This document shows, piece after piece, positions 1-64,000 of a stretch of DNA of 64,000 nt. This DNA comes from Octopus sinensis (lineage: Eukaryota), in the NCBI RefSeq assembly GCF_006345805.1, contig NC_043010.1, forward strand, positions 12,400,001 to 12,464,000. Direction: 5' to 3'. The number at the start of each line of letters is the position of its first letter. The stretch's first letter is position 1. Below the pieces are notes generated by a model. The model saw only the letters and a list, made by a program, of their open reading frames with translations, ran no database searches and was not told the DNA's origin. A program made the position numbers and the translations under genes.

Positions 1-199
1 GCTAAATATAATTAGGAGGAATATGGTAAGAATGAGAGATCAATAGAAGTGGCTCAAGAGAGAGGAAATGATGACTGACAGTACAGAAAGGGCAGAATGA
101 TACGATAAATAAGAGAGGGATGAAGCACAGGGAGATGATGGGTAAATATTGCAAGATTGTTGGTGAGAGTGAGAGATCTATAGATCTATAGTAATTGTC

Positions 200-1141: not shown

Positions 1142-1359
1142 TAAATTCAGAAACAAAGTATAGGTCAATCAACAAATTCCTAGACGCAAAATTTTAAACA
1201 TATCTTTAAAAATATACATTTATTAATACATTTTAATAAAGATCAATAGATCTATTGATCTGTATTAAAATGTATTAATAAATGTATATTTTTAAAGATA
1301 TGTTTAAAATTTTGCGTCTAGGAATTTGTTGATTGACTTACACTTAGTTTCTAAATTTA
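1142..1359. repeat. Spacer-less ~109-bp-arm palindrome
   Basis: Centre gatcaataga|tctattgatc at 1250/1251; arms reverse-complementary with few mismatches. Confidence 0.92.
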
Positions 1360-1449
1360 CCTCTTCTCTTGTATGTATGTATGTATGTATGTATGTATGT
1401 ATGTATGTATGTATGTATGTATGCATGCATGCATATATGCATTAACAAC

Positions 1450-1625
1450 TTTATGGTGTCACGAGAAAAGCACCCCATATACACTGTAAAGTGGTTGACG
1501 TTAGGAAGGGCATCAAGTCATAGTAAATAAACCAAATAGACACTGGAGCAGGATGCAATTCTTGGGCCCATTGGACTCTGTCCAATTCATGCCAGCATAG
1601 AACATGGACTTTAAATGATGATGAT
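1450..1625 (+). mobile_element. RTE-3'-end-related short repeat (SINE-like or truncated LINE tail)
   Basis: aaagcaccc...gtggttgacgttaggaagggcatc...catgccagcatag...aaatgatgatga matches the 3' end of the RTE LINE at 4733-4930 (reverse complement). Confidence 0.7.
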
Positions 1626-1671
1626 AAGGAGGAGTGTGTATACATATATATATATGTGTGTGTGTGTGTTT

Positions 1672-1978
1672 GTGGAGGCGCAATGGCCCAGTGGTGAAGG
1701 CAGCGGACACACGGCCATAGGATCGCAGTTTCGATTCCCAGACCGGGCATTGTGAGTGTTTATTGAGCAAAAACACCTAAAGCTCCACAAGGCTCCGCCG
1801 GTGGGGTGGGGGAGCGATCCCTGCTGTACTCTTTCACCACAACTTTCTCTCACTCTTTCTTCTGTCGGCCTGCTTGCTTAGCCAGTGGGGTGGCATCAAT
1901 TGAAGGCTAAAAAAACAATACAAAGTGCATTGTGACCAGCGATGTGTAGCAACATCTGATTGCCTGGTTGGTCACGGT

Positions 1979-1980
<2 letters not shown>
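1672..1980 (+). mobile_element. tRNA-like SINE, family C
   Basis: 5' head ggaggcgcaatggcccagtggt...gtttcgattccc (A/B-box-like); related heads at 58738 and, reversed, at ~14626. Confidence 0.75.
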
Positions 1981-2014
<34 letters not shown>

Positions 2015-2078
2015 ATATATATATATATAAAATATATATATATATATATATTATAAAAATATATATATATATATATAA

Positions 2079-2142
<64 letters not shown>

Positions 2143-2489
2143 AAAAAGGGGGAGAGAGAGTGAGAAGCTTTTGTGTGCAAACAAAAAAATACAAAGTAGT
2201 CAGTATAGGGTGTAATTTTTTTCATTTATTAGAGGGCAGTTGATGACTCAGTCCATTCCAACTCAGGCCATCAGGTCATGTTCAATCAAACAACATTGAG
2301 ACTGAGAAAGCATCAATAGTTTATGCTGTTTTGTTATCAGCGTGTATTTCATGTATATGCATTCATGCATGTGTGTGTATGTATACGCACATGTGTATGT
2401 GTACATATGTACATAAGAATGCTCATCCTTTTTATTTCCTCTGAAGATCAAAAACTCTTTACAAATATTCCTCTACATGTAGCATCATG

Positions 2490-2677
2490 TATAGTGTCTT
2501 TCCCTCACTGACTTACTAGACGCACACACTCACTCATACTCTGTATCTGCATACTATCACTTCTACCACTTGGACCACTATTCTGACCCCCTGAAATAAC
2601 GAACCGTGTAGTAGAGATGTTCTGTCTGCCCTTCTTTTCATCCCTACTACGTTTTATTTTCCCAAATCTTATGATTC
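2490..2677. repeat. Dispersed ~190-bp repeat, copy 1
   Basis: tatagtgtctttccctcactga...tccctac...aaatcttatgattc is similar to 4293-4480. Confidence 0.75.
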
Positions 2678-2756
2678 CACCACATGTAGCCTGTTCTTAA
2701 TACTGGACATTTTGCCATAAACCATTTTAGAAACAACATTATCTAAAAGTGGTTTT

Positions 2757-3186
2757 GGATCTTTTCGGTTTGAACAGCAGTTTTTTAACATAATTTCTAG
2801 GTAACTAAACACTTTTAAACTTCGTATACTGGTAGAATGTGATTATAAAACATCTTTTTCTCTTGGCTTTATTGAGAACATTCTATAGTTTGTAAGATAT
2901 TTGTTGTTTTTTTTTTCTTCAAATTCTGCAATTTCAACCAATCAATGACGTCTATTGAGGTAAAAAAAAAACATTCTGTGCCATATGAATATGTCCCTCG
3001 TTTAAGAAACAGATTGGGTTTATTTACATTTGTGAAGAAAAAAAGATACCCTTCCCCCCACCCCTAACCCTAACCCTAACCCTAAAACAGATTGAAATGC
3101 AATAGATTGATACTAGGGTCGTAATTATGGGTGACAATTTCATATGACACCGCTAGAAAAAACTGCCGTTCAAACCGAAAAGATCC
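2757..3186. mobile_element. MITE with ~30-bp TIRs and 8-bp TSD (Merlin- or hAT-like) containing a (CCCTAA)n tract
   Basis: TIR ggatcttttcggtttgaacagcagtttttt / aaaaaactgccgttcaaaccgaaaagatcc; TSD GTGGTTTT at 2749-2756 and 3187-3194; CCCTAA x4 at ~3062-3085. Confidence 0.9.
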
Positions 3187-3714
3187 GTGGTTTTACTTCT
3201 GATGCAAAACTTCTCAATTTCAAATATTTATATCTAAATTAAATCACTTTTTCATAATTTTTTTGTCAGAAGTAATTACATCATGGGGAGTATTTATTAG
3301 CCATTCAAAAGCACACAAAATCTTTAGACAGGTACATTTAAAAATTCATGTAAGAAAATTTTTGTTAAATAATATTCTGAACACCTGCTAAATGATAAAC
3401 AATTTAATGTAAAGTCCAGAAACTGTTTCTGATACTCTGTAAAAATAAGACCACCTCTACATTAACAATTTGCTTACATATCTTGTATAGCACAGGTAAT
3501 ACATGCAGACATTTTGGGCTGCAAGCAGAAGCTATAACAAAACAGGTGTCATAAAAGTTTTAGTTAAATTTCAGAACTTCTTCCTTGTTAGACCAATTAA
3601 CCCCCAGGTCTACTGAATTTTCTTTTATTAAATTTCTAGAACAACTAGTCCACTGATACTCTGCATATTCACCTTACTATTTTACAAGAACTGTTTGTCA
3701 TCTACTGTGATATA

Positions 3715-4732: not shown

Positions 4733-7700
4733 CATCATCATCATCATCATCATCGTCGTTTAACGTCCGTTCTCCATGCTAGCATGGGTTGGACGGTTCG
4801 ACCGGGGTTCTGGGAAGCCAGAAGGCTGCACCAGGCTCCAGTCTAATCTGGCAATGTTTCTACAGCTGGATGCCCTTCCTAACGCCAACCACTCCGTGAG
4901 TGTAGTGGGTGCTTTTTACGTGCCACCTGCACAGGTGCCAGGCGGGGCTGGCAACGGCCACGGTCAGATTGGTGTATTTTATGTGCCACCGGCACGGAAG
5001 CCAGTCGAGGTGGTGCTGGCATCGGCCACGGGTCGGATAGTGCTTTTTACGTACCACCAGACAGGGATCCTGGCTGGTTCAATTCGATTTCGATTTCGCT
5101 TGCCCCAACATGTCTTCACAAGCAAAGGGGGTTGGCATGGGTGCCTGTCGTACGGTCGCATTGGAGTATTTTACGTGTCACGGCCACGAGTCGGATAGTG
5201 CTTTTTACGTACCACCAGACCAGGGATCCTGGCTGGTTCAATTCGATTTCGATTTCGCTTGCCCCAACATGTCTTCACAAGCAAAGGGGGTTGGCATGGG
5301 TGCCTGTCGTACGGTCGCATTGGAGTATTTTACGTGCCACGGCCACGAGTCGGATAGTGCTTTTTACGTACCACCAGGCCAGGGATCCTGGCTGGTTCAA
5401 TTCGGTTTCGATTTCGATTTCGCTTGCCCCAACATGTCTTCGCAAGCATGGGGGGTTGGGATGGGTGTCTGTCGTCGGATGAGGTTCTATATCGACTTCG
5501 CTTGCCTCAACCGGTCTTTGTGTCCAAGGGAGGAAAGGCATTCATAAGTGGGCTGGGCTCACTTGTCCTGCCTGGTCTTCTCACGTACAGAATATTTCCA
5601 AAGGTCTCGGTCTCTGGTCATTTCCTCAGTGAGGCCTAAAGTTCGAAGGTCGTGCTTCACCACCTTCCCAGGTTTTCCTGGTCTACCTCTTCCACGAGTT
5701 CCCTCAACTGCTAGGGATTGGCACTTTCTCACACACCTATCTTCATCCATTCTCGCCACATGACCATACCAGCGCAATCGTCTCTCTTGCACACCACAAC
5801 TGATGCTTCTTAGGTACAACATTTCTCTCAAGTGCTAACGCTCTGTCGAGTATGTACACTGACATTACACATCCATCGGAGCATACTGGTTTCATTCCTC
5901 ACGAGCTTACGCATGTCCTCAGCAGTCACAGCCCATGTTTCGCTGCCATGTAGCATGGCTGTTCATACACACGCATCATACAGTCTGCCTTTTACTCTGA
6001 GCGAGAGGCCTTTAGTCACCAGCAGAGTAAGAGCTCCCTAAACTTTGCCCAGGCTATTCTTATTCTAGCAGTTACACTTTCAGCGCACCCACCCCCACTA
6101 CTGACTTGGTCACCTAGATAACGGAAGCTATCAACTACTTCTAGTTTTTTCCCCTGGAAAGTGACGGAAGTTGTTTTCTGCAGATTTTCGGAGGTTAATG
6201 CTCCCGAGCATCTGCCACATACAAAAACTATCTTCCCAGTTAGCCTGCCTTTGACATTGCTGCACCTCTTATGTGTCCATAGCTTACACTGGGTACATCT
6301 TATAGAGTTTCTACCTACACCTTTTCTACAGATCGAGCAGGGCCATCTTCCTGAAGATATTTGTGGATTGTCTACCTTTCTACTTATTAGTACTTTGGTT
6401 TTAGCTAGGTTGACTCTAAGGCCCCTTGATTCTAAACCCTCCTTCCACACCTGGAACTTCTCCTCCAGTTCTGATAGTGACTCAGCAATAAGAGCAAGGT
6501 CATCAGCGTAGAGGAGCTCCCAGGGACAGCCTGTCTTGAATTCCTCCGTAATTGCCTGGAGTACTATGATAAATAGGAGGGGCTGAGTACTGAACCCTGG
6601 TGGACCCCAACCTCTACTTTGAATTCTTCTGTGTACATGTTGCCAACCCTAACCTTACTTACGGCATCTCTGTACATGGCTTGCACAGTCCTCACCAGCC
6701 ATTCATCTATCCCTAGTTTCCTCATTGACCACCAGTTAAGGGATCGGGGGACCCTATCAAAAGCTTTCTCCATGTCAACGAAAGCCAGGTACAGGGGCTT
6801 ATCTTTGGCTAGGTATTTCTCCTGCAGCTGCCTTACCAGGAATATAGCATCAGTGGTACTTTTCCCTGGCACGAACCCAAACTGCATCTCATCTAAACTA
6901 ACTCTCTCTCTAATTAGTTGGGCTATGACCCTCTCCGTAACCTTCATTACTTGATCCAACAGCTTGATACCTCTGTAATTATTTGTATCTAGGGCATCAC
7001 CTTTACCTTTGTAGCAGTTGACTAGTATGCTGCTGCACCAGTCATTGGGTATGACTCCTTCGTGTATCACCTGGTTGACTATACGGGTGACTAGGTTATA
7101 GCCGACACTGCCAGATATTTTGAGCATCTCTGCAGTAATTCCTGATGGGTCTGGGGCTTTCCCTGTCTTCATGCTTCTAATTGCCTTAGCTACCACGGAA
7201 CTATCGACTCGGATAGCTGGTCCCTCTGTAGGGTCAACATTCGGCAGACTCTCTTTATCCCACATCATTTTCCTCATTCAGTAACCTTTCATAGTGGCGT
7301 CTCCAGCTTCTCTCTTTGCATCCTCATTTAGCGCAAGTGAACCATCCTCCATGCGAACACATTTCTCTCCTACCACATCACGATTCTCTCTCACACACTG
7401 TCTTGCAACACGAAATACCTCAAGTCTTTCATCCTCACGGCGCAGGACATTGGCAAATTTTCTCTTATCTGCTTCCCCTCTGGCTAGATAGACCTGTCTC
7501 CTAGCTTCCCTTCTGGCAGTCTGATACCCTTCCCTGCTACCACCGTTCTTCCAGGCCTTCCAAGCCTGTTTCTTTTGTCTAATAGCCCTGTCAACAATAT
7601 TGTTCCACCACCACGTTATTTTGGGTCTTAAGGGGACTTTGCACCAGCCACAGATCTGGTCAGCGGCTTTCAGCAGGTTGTCCCTCAGAAACGTCCAGTT

Positions 7701-9260
7701 GTCTTCTACCCCATGTGTAGCTATACCCCCTTCCACTTCGTCAAAGGCTTCAAGTAACATATCTCTAAATCTCTGTCCATTCGCAGGGGCTTTAAGCTTC
7801 CAGACCCTTCTTCTCCATGTTGGTCGTCTTCTAGTCGCCCTCTTAGTCCTGATCCTAAAGTCACTAACTACCAGTCTATGTTGTGGGGTGCATTCTTCGC
7901 CTGGGAAGGTTTTGGCATTTATAAGCAGCCATCTTTCCCTTTTTCTGGCAAGGATGTAGTCGATTTGGCTAGTATGCCGGCCCGATCGGTAGGTGACCAG
8001 GTGGCTTGTTGGTTTCCTGAAGTTAGTGTTGCAGACCATAAGACTATTCGCATCGCAGAACTCCAGCAGCCTGGTTCCCTCCTCGTTGCGGGAACCATAA
8101 CCGTAGCCTCCATGTGCGCCATGGAAGCCCCCAGCATGTCGTCCAACATGCCCATTGAAATCACCAGCCACAAAGAGAAGGTCCCTGTCGTTCGTCGATG
8201 AGGCGGTCTGCAGTAGGGTGTCATAGAAACTGTCTTTCTGTCCATCGGGTAGCCCTGGCTGAGGGGCATAGCCGATATAATGGTTGCTAATCTATTATGA
8301 AGCACTATTCTAATCTTAAGTATTCTGTCACTTACTCTGATTACCTCAAGTACTCTATCTATCCATTTCTCAGCGATAAGTATACCACGCCACCAACCCC
8401 GTCAGTGTTCCCTGCCCAGAAAATCTTGTACCTGTGTTTCTTGCCTGTGAGGACCCTAGCAGATCCTCCTCTCCACCTTATTTCTTGCATACACATACAT
8501 CAACACGTCTCCGTTCAAGCATCTCGACTATCTCGCCAGACCTACCTTTCAATGTGCCAACGTTGAGGGTGCCCACCCTGAGGGTGTGGGAGGTGTGGGC
8601 CTCTGAGACCCTGGGATGAGGGACAGCAGTGTTATGTACCTGAAAAGAAAGCTTGCATTTGCCAGATATCATACTGAGACTCTAGACTACAACCTGCATA
8701 AATTTCACAGTTTTTGCGCTATATGATCACAATAAACCCTACATAGGGGTGCGGGGGGGTCAAGAAAGATAGAAAACAGAAACTTCCGGTTCTGTGGATG
8801 GTGGGTGGGTGGATGGGTGGGGGGTGGTGGATGGGTGGAGGGTGGGTGATGGGTGGGAGGGTGGGTGGGTGGATGGGTGGGAGGTGGATGGGGGAGGGTG
8901 GGTGGGCGGGGGGGGGGTGGGAAGGCGGGGTCACCTCGAAGGAACAACAGGTTTTAAATTAATACGTAGGGAATTTTCTGCAACAGAAATTACTGAACAT
9001 CTAGGAACTTCGGGGTTCGAGAAGAACGTAATATAAATAAGAGAGAGAGAAAAAATTTCGTAGGGAATTTAGGGTATCTTTGGGGAAAGGAATAACGACG
9101 AAGGAACAACAGGTTTTAAAGTAATACGTAGGGAATTTTCTGCCACAGAAATTACTGAACATCTAGAAACTTCGGGGTTCGAGTAAAACATAATATAAAT
9201 AGGAGAGAGAGAGAATATTGTAGTGAATTCTGGGGATGGAATAATAACAGGATGACACTG
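4733..9260 (-). mobile_element. Near full-length RTE-clade non-LTR retrotransposon (LINE)
   Basis: (GAT)n tail at 4733-4760, long 3' UTR, single ORF with APE and RT domains; 5' region with G-rich tract and a 161-bp duplication; 5' boundary uncertain. Confidence 0.92.
5559..8672 (-). pseudogene. RTE LINE polyprotein: APE endonuclease + reverse transcriptase + PHD-like zinc finger, split by frameshifts
   Basis: LRVGTLNVGTL, AGDFNGHVG, SQIDYIL, QHRLVV (APE); KAPDPSGI, NYRGIKLL, QFGFVPGKSTTDAIF, AFVDMEKAFDRVP, GVHQGSVLSP, LLYADDL, FRYLG (RT); RRLRWYGHVARM and RGRGRP (RTE C-terminus). Confidence 0.93.
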
Positions 9261-23825: not shown

Positions 23826-24203
23826 TATACATGACACTCACATATACTTATTTTGTAAGTGTATGCGTGTGTACTATCCATATATTTATTCCCTGTGTGT
23901 GTGTGTGTTTTCTAAAGTTGGCACATGGCCAGCAAACATTTTGGTGGAAGTTACTGTCAATCAAGTCAACCTAAGCATTTGATTGAGACTTAGAATATCG
24001 ACCATAGCGAAATGAAAGTTGAGCTCAAAAACCATTTGAAGTCAGAACATGATGATATGTAACCCGATATCTCAATGCATTTCATCCAGTATTGAATGAA
24101 ATCTGCTACCCACCGCATGCTTGCAAATATATATATGTGTGTGTGTGTGTGTGTATGTGTGTGTGTGTGGAGAGAGAAAGAGATAGAGAGGTAATATATA
24201 TAG

Positions 24204-24618
24204 AGGTGCAGGAGTGTCTGTGTGGTAAGTAGCTTGCTAACCAACCACATGGTTCCGGGTTCAGTCCCACTGCGTGGCATCTTGGGCAAGTGTCTTCTGC
24301 TATAGCCCCGGGCTGACCAATGCCTTGTGAGTGGATTTGATAGACGGAAACTGAAAGAAGCCTGTCGTATATATGTATTTATATATATATGTGTATGTGT
24401 GTGTGTTTGTGTGTCTGTGTTTGTCCCCCTAGCATTGCTTGACAACCGATGCTGGTGTGTTTACGTCCCCGTCACTTAGCGGTTTGGCAAAAGAGACCGA
24501 TAGAATAAGTACTGGGCTTACAAAGAATAAGTCCCGGGGTCGATTTGCTCGACTAAAGGCGGTGCTCCAGCATGGCCGCAGTCAAATGACTGAAACAAGT
24601 AAAAGAGTAAAAGAGTAG
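24204..24618 (+). mobile_element. SINE family A, full length
   Basis: Complete head, core and (gagtaaaa) tail. Confidence 0.92.
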
Positions 24619-24829
24619 AGGTGTATGTGTGTGAGTGTGCATGAATGCATATGGCCAAGTGGTTAGAGTGTTGGGCTCAGAATCGCATGATCATGGTTTC
24701 AATCCCAGACTGCCAGTGTATTGTTTTTTTTTTTGAGCAAAAAACACTTCGTTTTATGTTGCTCCAGTTCACTCAGCTGTAAATGCGCAATCCTTTGGCA
24801 GATTGGTATCATTTTGTGCAGCACGGAGA

Positions 24830-25455: not shown

Positions 25456-25681
25456 TACTCTTTATACTCTTTTACTCTTTTACTTGTTTCAGTCATTTGA
25501 CTGCGGCCATGCTGGAGCACCGCCTTTAGTCGAGCAAATCGACCCCGGGACTTATTCTTTATAAGCCCAGTACTTATTCAATCGGTCTCTTTTGCCGAAC
25601 CGCTAAGTGACGGGGACGTAAACACACCAGCATCGGTTGTCAAGCAATGCTAGAGGGACAAACACAGACACACAAACATAT

Positions 25682-25717
<36 letters not shown>

Positions 25718-25890
25718 ATATATACGACAGGCTTCTTTCAGTTTCCGTCTACCAAATCCACTCACAAGGCATTGGTCGGCCCGAGGCTATAGCAGAAGAC
25801 ACTTGCCCAAGTTGCCACGCAGTGGGACTGAACCCGGAACCATGTGGTTGGTAAGCAAGCTACTTACCACACAGCCACTCCTGCGCCTAT
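25456..25890 (-). mobile_element. SINE family A, full length
   Basis: Reverse complement of 24204-24618. Confidence 0.92.
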
Positions 25891-26164
25891 GTATAGGAAC
25901 ATTTGAATGCAAAAGATCACTTGTAAGCCTTATGGCAGGGTTTTACGCCAGTTCTTAACCCCAGTTGTTTTGTGTGAAACAGACAGAATTAATAATTCTT
26001 TGGACAGTCCAACACAAGATGTCAAATACTTTTTTTCTGTTATTTTTGCCTAGTGACAGTAGAAATTTTACTGGAACAGGAAAACCATTTTATCCATACA
26101 AGGTTTATGTGTATCAAATAACTTGGAAAAGGAGTAAAATGGGAAAAGGAAATTCTATACTACA

Positions 26165-27011: not shown

Positions 27012-27233
27012 TACTCTTTACTCTTTACTCTTTTACTTGTTTCAGTCATTTGACTGCGGCCATGCTGGAGCACCGCCTTTAGTCGAGCAAATCGACCCCG
27101 GGACTTATTCTTTGTAAGCCCAGTACTTATTCTATCGGTCTCTTTTTGCCAAACTGCTAAGTTATGGGGGCGTAAACACACCAGCATCGGTTGTCAAGCA
27201 ATGCTAGGGGGACAAACACAGGGGGGAAAACAT

Positions 27234-27268
<35 letters not shown>

Positions 27269-27432
27269 TGACAGGCTTCTTTCAGTTTCCGTCTACCAAA
27301 TCCACTCACATGGCATTGGTCGGCCCGAGGCTATAGCAGAAGACACTTGCCCAAGATGCCATGCAGTGGGACTGAACCCGGAACCATGTGGTTGGTAAAC
27401 AAGCTATTTACCACACAGCCACTCCTGCGCCT
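27012..27432 (-). mobile_element. SINE family A, full length
   Basis: Same sequence family as above. Confidence 0.92.
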
Positions 27433-27595
27433 ATGTTAAATTGATATAAATTAAAACCGGCCACCTAATTATATGTTAATTTATGTTCCAAATACCAGCT
27501 TAACAATAATTTTATTTTCATTTTTTTTTAGAAATTTGTCTTAATTTTCAAAATTAATTAAAACAAAAGGCAGTGTTTTTAAGCTGAAACATGGT

Positions 27596-27998
27596 CAGGA
27601 GTGGCTGTATGGTAAGTAGCTTGCTAACCAACCACATGGTTCCGGGTTCAGTCCCACTGCGTGGCATCTTGGGCAAGTGTCTTCTGCTATAGCCCCAGGC
27701 CAACCAATGCCTTGTGAGTGGATTTGGTTGACGGAAACTGAAAGAAGCCTGTCGTATATATGTATGTATATATATATGTGTGCGTATGTGTGTGTGTTTG
27801 TCCCCCTAGCATTGTCTGACAACCGATGCTGGTGTGTTTACGTCCCCGTCACTTAGCGGTTCGGCAAAAGAGACCGATAGAATAAGTACTGGGCTTACAA
27901 AGAATAAGTCCCGGGGTCGATTTGCTCGTCTAAAGGCGGTGCTCCAGCATGGCTGCAGTCAAATGACTGAAACAAGTAAAAGAGAGTAAAATAGAGTA
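27596..27998 (+). mobile_element. SINE family A, near full length
   Basis: Same family; inverted relative to 27012-27432. Confidence 0.92.
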
Positions 27999-34883: not shown

Positions 34884-36018
34884 CCTCTTCGTCATCACCA
34901 CTATTGTTAGTGGCAGCCATGGCAGGAGCAGCATCGTTATCGTCATCGTCATTGTTTCACCTTCATGTAAATAAAGACTGCGTCTTTGAATTCCCTTAGT
35001 GTGCCATTTTTCAGGCAATAATAAGATACTAATTCCTCTCAGAACACCTTTAACCAAAGCTACACCTCTTAAGTTAAAAACAGAAATTTCTCTGCTAGAA
35101 ATAAAGAAATGTTTCCAATGGGAATTGCCATCCATTTTATGGAACCCTAATTTCAAACTAATCTATAATTTATTTCTTTAAACTCTTCGCAGAATACAAT
35201 GGTCAACTCATTCTATTTATTTCAGACACTTAGAGTCAGTAGGGTTGTGTCATTGGCACAGAAAAAAAGCAAAATCAATAAACAGTTTTGCTAGAAGCAT
35301 ATAGATATTGTTATATTTCAGGATGGTCTTCTTTTTTTTCCGAATAACCACATGCACTATATACTCATTCTCATTTCTGCTTTATTATTATTTCATATTT
35401 TAGTGTCCTTTGCCTAAAATCTTTCATCACACATCCTGTGACCTCTTCAGCAACCCTCCATCCTATGTGTCTCCACCTGTGCTGTTTGGGCAATTTTGTG
35501 CGTGTGCATGTGTGTATTCATGTCTATGTGTTTAGTGTGTGTGTTTTGTGTGTGGGTGTGTGTATGATTTGTTTACTAAACTGTTTGTACCCATGTCTTT
35601 TATTCAGTTTTTTATTCATTTATCTATTTATTTGTTTCTCTATCATCTCCCATTCCATCTTAAGTATGTGTTTGTGTGTTTTGTGTGTATCATACTGTTT
35701 TTAGTCATCATGTTGTGTAAACATGAAATATAGAATTTAATGCATGCAAATACTAACAATGGTTACACTCATATCAGCATGAAAGTGCCTACTAGGATTA
35801 CACTTATCTCCGTATAAAGATGAGAGTGGCAACTGTTAGGCAGGCATTTGTAATCTTGATTACATGGGAATAATATTTCAGTTCCATTGTGCAGGTACCT
35901 ATACATACATATATATATATATAATTCATGTGTGTGTATCATCAATGGATCATATATAAATATATATACATACATACATGTGTATATATACATGTACCAA
36001 TATAAATATAAATGCATA

Positions 36019-38667: not shown

Positions 38668-38777
38668 AGGTTCAGTCCCACTGCGTGGCACCTTGGGCAA
38701 GTGTCTTCTACTATAGTCTCGGGCTGACCAAAGCCTTGTGAGTGGATTTGGTAGACGGAAACTGAAAAAAGCCCATC

Positions 38778-38829
<52 letters not shown>

Positions 38830-39050
38830 GTTTGTGTTTGTGTGTCTGTGTTTGTACCCCCAGCATTGCTTGACAACCGATGCTGGTATGTTTATGTCCC
38901 CGTCACTTAGCGGTTCAGCAAAAGAGACCGATAGAATAAGTACTAGGCTTACAAAGAATAAGTCCTGAGGGTTGATTTGCTCGACTAAATGTGGTGCTCC
39001 AGCATGGCCACAGTCAAATGACTGAAACAAGTAAAGGAGTAAAAGAGTAA
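38668..39050 (+). mobile_element. SINE family A, 5'-truncated
   Basis: Core and tail present. Confidence 0.88.
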
Positions 39051-39579
39051 ACAACACTGTTCTTCACAAAAATTGATGTGAATAAAAATAAATAAATTAA
39101 TAGTTCATAGAAAGATTAGGGTTTGATGAGATAGAAGTTTAGAGATATTGTATCTCTGTTGGCAATAGAAGAATTTCCTTGTTGTATGAAAATGCTGGTG
39201 ATATATAATATGTATTATTAATATAATGTTGTGTGATTGTCAATTATGAGTTATGAAACCTAAAGGTTTGCAGAAAGGGAAGGTGAACAAGTCAAGAATA
39301 AATTATTATATGTGTAAGGACAACCTGTAGGAAAGCAACTGCATATAAAAAGGCTTTATCTAACATCTACATGCAGAATGTAACTAGAGAAGTATGGATG
39401 TTTAACACTAATGATTGGTTGGTACATAGAAGGTACAATGTAACAAGGAAGGCATTTCAATAAGTAATTAAATAATACTTGGGAATTCAGGTAGCAAGCA
39501 GTACTCTAAGACCACAAAGACATAAACACAATACACACACGCATATACACATACACACACACACACATATATATATATA

Positions 39580-39975
39580 TTCTCTTTACTCTTTTACTTG
39601 TTTCAGTCATTTGACTGCGGCCATGCTGGAGCACCACCTTTAATCGAGCAACTTGACCCCTGGACTTATTCTTTTGTAAGCCCAGTACTTATTCTATCGG
39701 TTTCTTTTGCCGAACTGCTAAGTAACGGGGACATAAACACACCGGCATCGGCTGTCAAGCAATGCTAGGGGAATAAACACAGACACACACGCACACACAC
39801 ACACATATATATACATATATATGACGGGCTTCTTTCAGTTTTCTTCTACCAAATCCACTCACAAGGCTTTGGTCGGCCCGAGGCTATAGCAGAAGACACT
39901 TGCCCAAGGTGCCATGCAGTGGGACTGAACCCGGAACCATGTGGTTGGTAAACAAGCTGCTTACCACACAGCCAC
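39580..39975 (-). mobile_element. SINE family A
   Basis: Core and tail present. Confidence 0.88.
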
Positions 39976-43296: not shown

Positions 43297-43597
43297 TTTT
43301 CTTAAACACATTCACTTACGTACATTCCATTTGCCTAAGTTATAGATAGATCTCACTTGTAAAAATCTATGACTTCATTATGCCACCATACATAGAGACC
43401 ATTCTCCTAAGCATATACAGAAGTACGATGCTGGTGAGTTACCTACATACAATCAGTCAATAATTCTTGCCAATTTGCAAGCTACATTTTGTTGGATAAA
43501 GGATTGGCAGAGTGGTAAAAGTGCATGCTTTAGAATCACGTAGTTCTGAGTTGGATTCCACAGTATAACACTAAGAGAAAAAGGTTTTCTACAAATA

Positions 43598-43761
43598 GGC
43601 ATAGGAGTGGCTGTGTGGTAAGTAGCTTGCTTACAAACCACATGGTTCCGGGTTCAGTCTCACTGTGTGGCACCTCGGGCAAGTGTCTTCTACTATAGCC
43701 TCAGGCTGACCAAAGCCTTGTGAGTGGATTTGGTAGATGGAAACTGGAAGAAGCCCGTCAA

Positions 43762-43822
<61 letters not shown>

Positions 43823-44038
43823 TGTGTATGTATATGTTTGTGTGTGTGTGTCCCCAACATTGCTTGACAACCGATGCTGGTGTGTTTACGTCCCCGTATC
43901 TTAGTGGTTCAGCAAAAGAGACTGATAGAATAAGTACTAGGCTTACAAAGAATATGTCCTGGGGTCGATTTGCTCGACTAAAAGGCAGTGCTCCAGCATG
44001 GCCGCAGTCAAAATGACTGAAACAAGTAAAAGAATAAA
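43598..44038 (+). mobile_element. SINE family A, full length
   Basis: Complete head, core and tail. Confidence 0.9.
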
Positions 44039-44149
44039 TGCCACGAGCTGACCAATGACTTGTGAATAGGATTTAGTAGACAGAAACTGGACAGCTGAAA
44101 TCTACATACATACATACATACATACATACATACATACATACATAAAGGT

Positions 44150-49966: not shown

Positions 49967-50521
49967 TACATATATACTACATACACTCACACATACATAT
50001 ACACACACATATATATACATATATACACAAACACATACATGTTTATGTTTTTCTCCTTTTTTCTCTTACACCAACACTCTCTTTCTCTCTCTCTCACTGC
50101 ATATGCCATCTTCATCAACATCATCATTATCATCATCTAATGTCCACTTTTCCATGCTTGCATGACAGATATAATTAGTTGAGGAAGATTTTCTATGGAT
50201 GGATGCCCTTCCTGTTGCCAACCCACAACTGTGTTAAAGTAAGGTAATATTCCCCATTACCAGACATGTTTCCAGAGAAGACTGGAAATGAAGGATGCCA
50301 GAGACATTCACTTACAAGAATTGCAAGAAGTCAAAGTGATTAGACAGTAACACACAAACACATATATGCATATATGTATATAGATATCTACAAATATATA
50401 TATATATATATATAGAAATTCGGGGTGAGTACTTGATAATTATAAGCACCTGTGTATACCGTTTGGTGGTGTAGGTGGTGGAGTAAATTGATCAAAATAA
50501 AAACATGATGCCAAGGATTCA

Positions 50522-50599
50522 GCGTTACATATGTTTCGGGCCTTTATTAGACAGATTTATAACAATGCATAATGTATGTCTGTGGCCTTCTTCAGCCGC
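50522..50599 (-). ncRNA. Type I hammerhead ribozyme-like motif (left arm copy)
   Basis: GCGG-CTGAAGA-a-GGCC...GGCC-c-GAAA-CATATG-TA-ACGC; one stem I mismatch. Confidence 0.5.
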
Positions 50600-50868
50600 G
50601 CACAACAACTTCCACAAGGACATGTGTACATCAAAAATCTTGGTTAGGGATGCAAATCCTCTCATTCGCGTACGACATAATGCGGCAACAGCATAGAATT
50701 GAAGCATCCATCTCTTTCTTCTCTCTTTCTTCTCTACATTGAGAGAAGAAAGAGATGGACGCTTCAATTCTATGCTGTTGCCGCATTATGTCGTACGCGA
50801 ATGAGAGGATTTGCATCCCCAACCAAGAATTTTTGATGTAACACATGTCCTTGTGGAAGTTGTTGTGC

Positions 50869-50946
50869 GCGGCTGAAGAAGGCCACAGACATACATTATG
50901 CATTGTTATAAATCTGTCTAATAAAGGCCCGAAACATATGTACCGC
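50869..50946 (+). ncRNA. Type I hammerhead ribozyme-like motif with extended stem II
   Basis: Stem I GCGG/CCGC, core CTGAAGA (50873-50879) and GAAA (50931-50934), palindromic stem III ACATATGT, GUA site at 50940-50942. Confidence 0.62.
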
Positions 50947-51107
50947 TGAATCCTTGGCATCATGTTTTTATTTTGATCAATTTACTATATATATATAATA
51001 TATATATATATAATTAACACCCCATGGATTTATATGGATAACACCATACAACATTCTGGTGCATCTAACTTAAGTACCATATTCAGTTGAATCTAAATTT
51101 TGCTGAA

Positions 51108-57180: not shown

Positions 57181-57224
57181 GACCACTGATGAGGTCACGG
57201 GAGTGTGACGAAAGAACTCTGGCC
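57181..57224 (+). ncRNA. Minimal type I hammerhead ribozyme motif with intact core
   Basis: GACCA-CTGATGA-g-GTCAC gggagt GTGAC-GAAA-GaaC-TC-TGGCC; predicted cleavage after C57219. Confidence 0.65.
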
Positions 57225-57572
57225 GAAATAAGATTAAGATTAATGTAAAAAATGAATAACGCTGAAGCAAAGTAACACCATATATATAGTGCGTGTGTTT
57301 TTATTGGCTAAACTGGCAAAATGACCATTCCTAAATAAAACACAAAAATATATTTGTTGTGAAAATGTATTTACAAATACTTTTAAAGTAAGACACAAAA
57401 AATGTAAACCAATAGGCTTATACACACACATACACACTCATAATGAATAATATAATACAAAAATATTTTTACTATAGACACAGGGCCTGAAATAAATATA
57501 CTACAATAAAGGTAAAGACCCTTTTTAGAATAAAGTTGTGGAAGGTAACTTCTACCATTCCTTCCACAACTT

Positions 57573-57966
57573 TATTCTTTTATTTGTTTTAGTCATTTGA
57601 CTGTGGCCATGCTGGAGCATCACCTTTAGTTGAACAAATCAACCCCAGGACTTATTCTTTGTAAGCCTAGTACTTATTTTATCGGTATATTTTGCCAAAC
57701 TGCTAAGTTATGGGGACATAAACACACTAGCATCGATTGTCAAGTGATATTGGGGGACAAACACAGATACACAAACATATACATATGTATGTGTGTGTAT
57801 ATATGACGGGCTTCTTTCAGTTTCCGTCTACCAAATCCACTCACAGGCTTTGGTCGGCCTGAGGTTATAGTAGAAGACACTTGCCTGAAGTGCCACGCAG
57901 TAGGACTGAACCCGGAACAATGTGGTTGGTAAGCAAGCTACTTACCACACACAGCCACTCCTGCAC
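57573..57966 (-). mobile_element. SINE family A
   Basis: Complete head to tail. Confidence 0.88.
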
Positions 57967-58109
57967 CAGGACCTGTAAGAGGTCCTGAAAAGAGTAATGG
58001 GTGCACCATTCCTCCTCTGACTAAACCATAAGAAAACAAGTAAAAAGATCAAAAAGAAATCACATCCTTCTTAACTCTATATCAATTGTATGTATTTAGA
58101 GTATATTAA

Positions 58110-62681: not shown

Positions 62682-63362
62682 CTCTCTTTTACTCTTTTAC
62701 TCTTTTACTTGTTTCAGTCATTTGACTGCGGCCAGCCATGCTAGAGCACCGCCTTTAATCGAGCAACTCCACCCCGGGACTTATTCTTTTGTAAGCCCAG
62801 CACTTATTCTATCGGTCTCTTTTGCCGAACCGCTAAGTGACGGGGGACGTAAACACACCAGCATCGGTTGTCGAGCAATGCTAGGGGGACAAACACAGAC
62901 ACACAAACACATATATATATATATATATATATATACTTTTTTTTTATTTACTCTTTTTACTTGTTTCAGTCATTTGACTGCGGCCATGCTGGAGCACCAC
63001 CTTTAGTCGAGCAAATCGACCCCGGACTTATACTTTTGTAAGCCCAGTACTTATTCTATCGGTCTCTTTTGCTGAACCGCTAAGTGACGGGGAACGTAAA
63101 CACACCAGCATCAGTTATCAAGCAATACTAGGGGGACAAACACACACACACAAACACATACACAGACACACACATATATATATATATATACATATATACG
63201 ACAGGCTTCTTTCAGTTTCCGTCTACCAAATCCACTCACAAGGCATTGGTCAGCCCGGGGCTATAGCAGAAGACACTTGCCCAAGGTGCCACGCAGTGGG
63301 ACTGAACCTGGAACCATGTGGTTGGTTAGCAAGCTACTTACCACACAGCCACTCCTGCGCCT
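62682..63362 (-). mobile_element. Tandem/nested SINE family A copies
   Basis: 3' half at 62682-62915 followed by a full copy at 62945-63362. Confidence 0.88.
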
Positions 63363-64000
63363 ATTAAAAAAAAATTTTTTTTTTCAACGTGATGGAAAAT
63401 AGAGTTTTACCAACTTAAATTTTAATTTCTTTCTGCTTATTGATTGACCATGAGTCTACAGTGTCCTGCTGTTGTTGTTATTGTTGTTGTTGTTGACGTT
63501 GTTGTTATTATTACTGTTGTTGTGGTATAATTATTTTACATGAATAAATACAATGGTTAATGCCACTAAATTCTTTTACAGTAATTATGGTTGAGGGGTA
63601 GAAACTTACAGAGGAAGACAATAGATCACATTAGACATGAATTTCAAAGGAGTTTTATGTGTATCTATATATAGCAGGGCTTGGCTCATCAGCTCCTGAC
63701 TCACCAGCTCTGGTCAAACTGTCCGGCCCATGGATGTTGATAATTATATATATAACCATATAAGAAAAGGCATAGATAATAGGTTTTACTTATTTATTTG
63801 TGCATTTATTAATGTTTTGTGTGTGTGTAATATATATAGACCAATATAGACCAATAGAATAAATACCAGGTTTAACAAAAATTAAGTATTGGGGTTGATT
63901 CATTCGACTAAAAATTCTCAAGGCAGTGCCCCAACATGGCCACAGTTTAATCACAAAAACAAGTAAAAGGTAAAAGATGTATATACTCTTTTACTTGTTT

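Follow-up and report, generated by a model that had tools for sequence, protein, structure and literature searches.

How does a short inverted repeat with a hammerhead ribozyme in each arm arise, and is it an element in its own right or the product of one? The window analyzed here, 64,000 nucleotides of the Octopus sinensis genome (NC_043010.1, positions 12,400,001 to 12,464,000, forward strand), contains such a foldback, which an earlier note had read as a young, non-coding, Penelope-mobilized hairpin element at 50482..50986. The right end of that interval holds, but its left end overlooked a 67-nt tail (50415-50481). From the sequence and comparison of the arms with sister copies, the foldback spans 50415-50986 (572 bp) and is placed within (TA)n. 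Almost certainly, a young Penelope-like element (PLE) with RT and endonuclease left two 5'-truncated copies of its terminal repeat here, placed head-to-head and inserted in (TA)n. Signed positions are counted from the first G of a 21-nt hammerhead anchor, which is window position 50871 in the right arm. In this numbering the hammerhead cut falls between +71 and +72 and the ATG of the parent element lies near +263. The features are as follows.

50394..50414, no strand: (TA)n target, left flank, read from the sequence; the last 4 nt are common to the element end
50415..50481, minus strand: 67-nt tail on the left arm only, between two putative reverse transcription starts (~+114 and +183/187)
50415..50725, minus strand: left arm, a 5'-truncated terminal-repeat copy with the long 3' end; 5' stop at -130
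50522..50599, minus strand: left hammerhead, type I, with a private C>A at 50525 in the first stem I pair; putative cut after 50526
50726..50732, no strand: 7-nt junction filler, part of an 11-nt tandem repeat of the bases that close the left arm
50733..50986, plus strand: right arm, a 5'-truncated copy of the same terminal repeat with the short 3' end (+115); 5' stop at -138
50757..50761, plus strand: DPE-like GGACG by sequence likeness, 27 nt after the -140 hotspot base
50869..50946, plus strand: right hammerhead, type I, family-typical, with a 4-bp stem I and a GUA site; predicted cut after 50942
50987..51012, no strand: (TA)n target, right flank, read from the sequence

The two inverted arms described earlier are present (50482-50725 against 50741-50986), and the right arm begins earlier than 50741, reaching back to 50733. 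They differ at five places (three substitutions and two single-base gaps), as few as had been noticed, and all five are rare alleles carried by the left arm. The filler is followed by 3 nt common to the right arm, whose 5' stop is 2 nt short of the family's 5'-end hotspot at -140. No target-site duplication is discernible at the foldback flanks. A microsatellite, (TA)n or similar, adjoins the 3' end of sister copies too.

Sister copies confirm the link to Penelope, as they lead upstream into an RT-endonuclease ORF. In a search of the 2.72-Gb genome, the arm matched 1,615 candidate places with best identities of 99-100%, in agreement with the young age claimed for the foldback. A 21-mer of the hammerhead core has 1,134 exact genome occurrences, against 0 for the reversed control. 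The earlier note had proposed a genome-wide search for partners coding for GIY-YIG and RT, and this search led to a parent with an 836-aa RT and GIY-YIG ORF, reached in sister copies by walking upstream through a ~2-kb microsatellite-rich region. The full-length parent at locus L081 is composed of (TA)n, an inverted truncated copy, a 2.2-kb repeat, the 836-aa ORF and again the 2.2-kb repeat. Its pseudo-LTRs (1282-3529, repeated at 6062-8299) are 98% identical, and locus L083 is built likewise. The hammerhead is located in the pseudo-LTR on the strand that is sense to the parent ORF, and the inverted 5'-truncated copy has a one-sided tail. The parent unit is ~4.8 kb long, and three loci of the family have 842-codon open frames. 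The 836-aa ORF carries YRDD and a C-terminal VIY..YIG motif. Searches of Pfam and PDB with the parent ORF gave no significant match, and its homologs P0003 and P0049 pass the Pfam GIY-YIG cut-off. Of 7,996 candidates scored, 1,374 are homologs of the parent protein, and identity is ~30-39% among the 120 matches listed; the few named homologs among the matches listed come from molluscs and a bryozoan. With its RT/GIY-YIG ORF, pseudo-LTR, inverted copy and hammerhead, the parent of the foldback is an EN+ Penelope-like element. The family is a useful one, being young and abundant with intact ORFs.

The motifs of the parent fit the Hydra clade as PMC8557442 defines it, except for RWA and length, in a motif-based assignment rather than one from an RT tree with reference proteins. 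The protein contains the C-terminal EN, DKT, the CxCx5C linker, CxxC and CxH (positions 126, 696, 793, 823), is without CCHH and GxKF/Y, and has a single Cys in the first EN strand. The shared set, as far as PMC8557442 describes Hydra-clade PLEs, comprises the C-terminal GIY-YIG, DKT, the linker, CxxC, CxH, the missing CCHH, the (TA)n target that counts among the features of the clade, and a sense-strand hammerhead near the 3' end. Hydra hammerheads listed in the supplement of PMC8557442 also have the extra base flanking stem II and the self-complementary helix III. Differences concern the RWA at residue 39 in place of RWK (aligned homologs have RWK, RWR or RWQ), an Asn-rich RT-EN linker (15% N), and a stem-loop II of 51 nt against loops of 3-10 nt in the Hydra motifs listed in PMC8557442. 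The ~4.8-kb unit with its 2.2-kb microsatellite-rich repeat also exceeds the length of under ~3 kb given for the Hydra clade, which PMC8557442 treats as a tendency and not as diagnostic. Compared by eye with Hydra-1_Obim in PMC8557442, both the protein and the hammerhead differ, and homolog P0019 resembles Hydra-1_Amil by eye. A first guess of the Naiad or Nematis clade was dropped on domain order and motifs. Naiad elements are expected to have an N-terminal GIY-YIG and no canonical hammerhead, whereas here the EN is C-terminal and a hammerhead is present.

At least six other Hydra-type families occur in the genome (L221-L240), several of them with 700-950-codon open frames. Most of those examined have a long stem-loop II (<=85 nt between core boxes) and different 8-12-nt palindromes; a hammerhead was not found for L221-L223, L236 or L237. 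The Hydra-type families of the genome together contribute a group of hammerheads whose stem-loop II is long, and Rfam missed the one that was searched. A compact two-hammerhead foldback flanked by (TA)n at L238 (2690-3350) belongs to another family and likewise pairs a short end with a longer one. The insertion at L094 (2150-3400; G000:C24:17985500+) is a chimera: another Hydra-type family contributes its endonuclease end and 3' region, which are folded back and then joined to the ORF of the foldback family near the ORF start. Such a structure hints at a template switch from one family to the other.

The right-arm hammerhead reads as the earlier note had claimed. Stem I (50869-72/50943-46) is followed by the core (50873-79), an extra A (50880), stem II (50881-84/50926-29) with its extension (50885-89/50913-17), GAA (50931-33) and the 8-nt palindrome (50934-41), and the cut is expected after A50942. 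An extra base stands on each side of stem II, stem-loop II is long and helix III is an 8-nt palindrome. The elements of a type I hammerhead (CUGANGA, GAAA, an NUH core and three covarying helices) are all found. The stem I mismatch reported for the left copy is likewise there, at 50525, and its allele was seen in 1 of 177 arms. Our own hammerhead descriptor matches the right copy, at a background of 0.05 matches per shuffled 64-kb window (20 shuffles). A comparison with Rfam, as the note had proposed, gave no hammerhead family at E<=10; the scan of the foldback returned only a microRNA-like hairpin and simple-repeat noise. This miss is likely due to the long stem-loop II.

Folding predictions bear on what the two ribozymes could do. 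The unconstrained minimum free energy structure of the 78-nt monomer is the hammerhead fold (-11.8 kcal/mol), with a helix III of only 2 bp, and with 6-nt flanks the hammerhead fold is not favored (z +0.97). Two copies together adopt the dimeric hammerhead as their unconstrained minimum (-35.4 vs 2 x -11.8 kcal/mol), a prediction that agrees with the dimer-type hammerhead assigned to the terminal repeat. The ribozymes of the foldback lie on opposite strands and are unable to form such a dimer in cis. As the arms are head-to-head, the antisense arm is transcribed first on either strand. In the full foldback transcript of either strand, >99.8% of the hammerhead core is predicted to be paired. 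A transcript was earlier thought able either to self-cleave or to be locked into double-stranded RNA. The folding supports the lock and speaks against a free choice: in a read-through transcript of the foldback the hammerhead would be held in dsRNA.

Covariation, whose absence among family copies the earlier note had listed as a refuting result, is seen across eight aligned loci of related families. The covarying parts are stem I and the palindromic helix III. In total, 88.6% of cells are paired, against 32-54% in slid controls, and 21 cells are changed on both sides, a value reached by 0 of 500 shuffles; the eight loci were first picked by a stem-requiring scan and some are close relatives. 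These substitutions point to selection on the hammerhead across families. Within the family, a 94-nt stretch is the same in 94 of 181 arms, which speaks for youth rather than selection because the sample was partly selected on the core. A core-only scan located the motif 3' of the ORF, in sense orientation, at 11 of 17 long-ORF loci. At the remaining six no hammerhead was found within 4 kb downstream of the ORF, and two of these six have one upstream.

The hammerhead shares with the minimal and dimeric PLE hammerheads described in PMC4209133 the type I topology, an unpaired base after A9, a short stem I, a palindromic helix III and a predicted dimer. Unlike those described there, it has an 8-nt perfect palindrome, a long stem-loop II and an A-C mismatch at the usual G10.1-C11.1, unless stem II is drawn with a bulge. 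The A-C is found in the PLE family of the arm, and the position is paired in the other seven of the eight aligned loci. Elsewhere in the window, hammerhead-like motifs at 57184-57223 (plus strand) and ~35413-35453 (minus strand) have a short stem-loop II, are alike and are unrelated to the foldback family. They are probably remnants of another PLE-type end.

The 3' ends of the copies are informative about how the arms were made. Among arms on contig C1, 3' ends are bimodal, with 55/101 at +101..115, 41/101 at +184..197 and 5/101 elsewhere, so the two sites are ~70 nt apart. Adjacent opposite copies stand head-to-head in 64 pairs and tail-to-tail in two. One long and one short end are combined in 51 of 55 inverted pairs from both samples. 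The C1 sample was drawn irrespective of end type; 29 of its 33 pair loci were classified, giving 27 long with short and two long with intermediate; all 27 pairs with both ends classifiable follow the rule (p=1.5e-8). The sample from C2-C4 comprised 60 loci selected on a long end, 26 of them with a classifiable partner, which was short in 24, intermediate in one and a read-through into the ORF in one. Some long ends enter (CT)n before or instead of (TA)n (L002, L017, L020, L023, L167, L190), and one enters (AGAT)n (L012); mixed targets or slippage at priming are alternative explanations. Telomerase-like stutter at the short end was rejected, since the extra T-rich unit is a subfamily allele present in 29/69 long and 25/68 short arms.

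Both arms appear to derive from one source. The arms of one insertion mismatch at 21 of 1,726 polymorphic cells (1.2%; 31 columns) against 17.8% when shuffled, with a minimum of 13.0% in 2,000 shuffles, and 12 private alleles are common to both arms of an insertion. One pair is discordant, the arms of L181 differing at 7/31 polymorphic sites. These allele patterns indicate that the arms of one insertion come from one source; gene conversion after insertion could also have produced shared alleles.

The 5' ends have a sharp peak. The junction search at -140 gave 30 genome-wide matches, all of them true 5' ends (26 independent ends once a fourfold duplicate and a mirrored pair are each counted as one), and the control one base upstream, -141, gave four matches. 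Other controls yielded three true ends at -108, two at +68, five at +72 and three at +77, none of the controls beginning with AT; a control at -147 was left out as the site is polymorphic (349 matches). The hammerhead cut site (+72) has no clear excess of ends, with five against two and three at the neighboring controls. In the C2-C4 sample, only a weaker and broader excess is seen, near -120..-147. The -140 base is the A of TCATTC, which we take to fit the initiator consensus. GGACG downstream is one base off the textbook DPE spacing. It resembles RGACGTGY, quoted in PMC2377424 as the DPE of D. virilis Penelope. A G precedes -140 in 14/18 independent non-(TA)n junctions compared to 2/11 controls (p=0.003); in 8 of the 14 the G may come from the partner arm, and the other six alone give p=0.08. 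For L1 and SVA, an untemplated 5' G is the accepted sign that a cap has been copied (PMC4859970). At eight of the -140 ends the element abuts (TA)n, and AT microhomology there favors that position. Some junctions nearby are explained by a 4-bp inverted repeat at -143/-131. Since 73 of the 111 arms extend beyond -170, the majority of copies require a longer template, tandem or circular. Both putative RT starts lie 3' of the hammerhead cut site, and the RNA behind hammerhead-bearing copies must therefore have been left uncut, or been re-ligated, at that site. The insertions at L131, L160, L163, L167 and L183 switch orientation two or three times, and several of these copies break near -1050..-1165 in the repeat, possibly at another stop hotspot or as a microsatellite alignment effect.

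Several processes could have produced these patterns. Under self-priming by fold-back, a single cDNA forms a hairpin at its end and copies itself (for Adineta Penelopes, PMC3846280 proposes antisense RNA in the role of template), and the endonuclease trims the second arm at the short site. The fold-back has a precedent in PMC3846280, and PMC8557442 ascribes the tail to endonuclease resolution. Source and private alleles common to both arms would follow from such copying, and the use of the 4-bp local inverted repeat at some junctions would suit it as well. As a self-folded cDNA cannot add a tail that is absent from its template, the tail should then always be on the arm reaching further 5', yet of 31 asymmetric pairs the further-reaching arm is long-ended in 15 and short-ended in 16. 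The short-ended arm of the window foldback also reaches 8 nt further 5', and the -140 peak recurs in arms joined straight to host DNA. The 16:15 split largely refutes fold-back, which we consider improbable, and together with the one-long-one-short rule it argues for two primings. Dual priming itself is highly probable. It would hold equally if the -140 peak were a pause or joining hotspot, caused by a purine run, AT microhomology and a local hairpin on a long or circular template. Most arms do run past -140, the preceding G is partner-templated in 8/14 junctions and the peak is weaker in the second sample, all in favor of a hotspot. The single-base sharpness (30 vs 4), the initiator-like sequence with its DPE-like motif and the six junctions with a G unexplained by the partner arm speak against it, and we regard the hotspot as a possible but weaker candidate. 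From these sequence patterns we lean slightly towards a capped RNA start at -140.

The foldback could also be a separate, non-autonomous hairpin (MITE-like or retrozyme-like) with transcription and mobilization of its own as a 500-bp unit, close to what the earlier note proposed. Compact foldbacks of similar size are indeed common, with both arms ending at -105..-143 in 8 of 27 C1 pairs, and one identical junction occurs at four places (L353, L354, L356 and L359, on unplaced contigs). Those four places share their flanks, however, and represent one duplicated insertion, either by assembly redundancy or segmental duplication. Other junctions vary between copies, no tandem arrays are seen, the tail may be on either side, and sizes grade continuously, from a few hundred bases to ~7 kb, into copies bearing the RT-EN ORF. 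The differing junctions and lengths, with long copies running into the ORF, mean that each hairpin was made anew at insertion. A mobile hairpin unit is accordingly very unlikely, although the inverted terminal copies recognized earlier are real, as head-to-head truncated terminal repeats. An assembly or chimeric-read artefact is the least credible source. One apparent case exists elsewhere (L351/L352, G000:C18:5679579-5679622), with mirrored flanks and both ends short, and this large palindrome is a probable assembly foldback artefact centered on an element junction; the two 1-bp gaps in the left arm of the window foldback may be sequencing errors. But the window flanks differ from each other, the arm end points differ and are family-typical, and dozens of unrelated loci share the architecture, as does another family (L238). 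That the foldback is no read artefact, as the earlier reading requires, is supported.

We suggest two separate primings on opposite target strands in one event as the origin of the foldback, an explanation that is probable as a whole. The PLE protein would nick both strands of the (TA)n target, and reverse transcription would start within the 5' leader of the RNA, at ~+185 on one strand and ~+115 on the other. Synthesis of each cDNA may then continue across the uncut hammerhead and stop by early release or at the capped 5' end of the RNA, at -140, and the two cDNAs would be joined by microhomology. The maximum double run-off product of this kind is ~580 bp, and the window foldback measures 572 bp, its arms being 2 and 10 nt short. 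The in vitro behavior of PAc, with two internal starts bounding the tail, extension of both strands and use of uncut RNA, provides a precedent (PMC11167929). Taken with the family counts, it makes a history of dual nicking and priming, with arms copied to within 10 and 2 nt of the RNA start, the likeliest one by analogy. The chances are about even that compact PLE foldbacks in general arise by double run-off on a sense transcript, both arms being copied from its capped 5' leader. The same holds for the details, namely cDNAs ending at the transcription start with a cap-derived G and one complex using the same source RNA. The hammerhead would be inherited cargo in the stump, and in the tandem transcript of the parent it likely cuts as a dimer via its palindromic helix III. 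The foldback itself is ordinary PLE debris, presumably a dead copy.

Much of this architecture is already known for PLEs, namely inverted copies, one-sided tails and hammerheads on opposite strands. An inverted 5'-truncated copy with a one-sided tail is presented as standard for EN+ PLEs (PMC8557442, PMC3846280), Penelope-13_HM is listed with such a copy and hammerheads on both strands (PMC8557442), and opposite-strand hammerhead pairs 100-700 bp apart are reported for Schistosoma (PMC4209133). The octopus copies agree with the descriptions in PMC8557442, PMC3846280 and PMC2377424 in the head-to-head arrangement, the tail at one end and the AT-rich target, but their tail measures ~70 nt compared to 30-40 nt there. 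They are unlike described EN+ PLEs in the near-strict one-long-one-short rule, which is independent of the longer arm, and in the single-base 5'-end peak. PAc, a Poseidon element of Anolis, has the same two adjacent internal RT starts bounding a tail 3' of the hammerhead (PMC11167929), and the extension of both target strands from an uncut RNA template is presumably shared. The start sites lie inside the ORF in PAc as described in PMC11167929 and 75-150 nt before the ATG in the octopus family. Animal non-LTR retrozymes (bioRxiv 10.64898/2026.07.22.740005) are similarly non-coding and PLE-related with a type I hammerhead. As described there they form head-to-tail tandem units, whereas the foldback is head-to-head, single and not propagated as a unit.

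What is new is the family-wide evidence on the mechanism of PLE inverted insertion. In a literature search that covered sources other than most subscription journals and Repbase, neither the parent family nor a count of the pairing rule was found, and no source searched showed inverted PLE copies with a cap-derived G or a peak at a start site. The counts bear on the formation of tandem and inverted PLE insertions, a question left open in the accounts of PMC8557442 and PMC11167929. If true, our reading would settle that PLE inverted repeats are built by dual priming and not by self-priming on an antisense template, and a PLE promoter would have been mapped from genomic copies alone. The -140 peak predicts, to the base, where CAGE or 5'-RACE should place the RNA start. 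With its hundreds of near-perfect inverted repeats, the family would probably also supply long dsRNA to editing or small-RNA pathways.

Other repeats are found in the window. A frameshifted remnant of a LINE-type endonuclease and RT lies at 6016-8401 (minus strand). A SINE-like repeat of ~420 bp is present in many copies and both orientations (24200-24620, 25465-25895, 27020-27990 and 38670-39975), with further copies at 43595-44040, 57570-57970 and 62947-63365.
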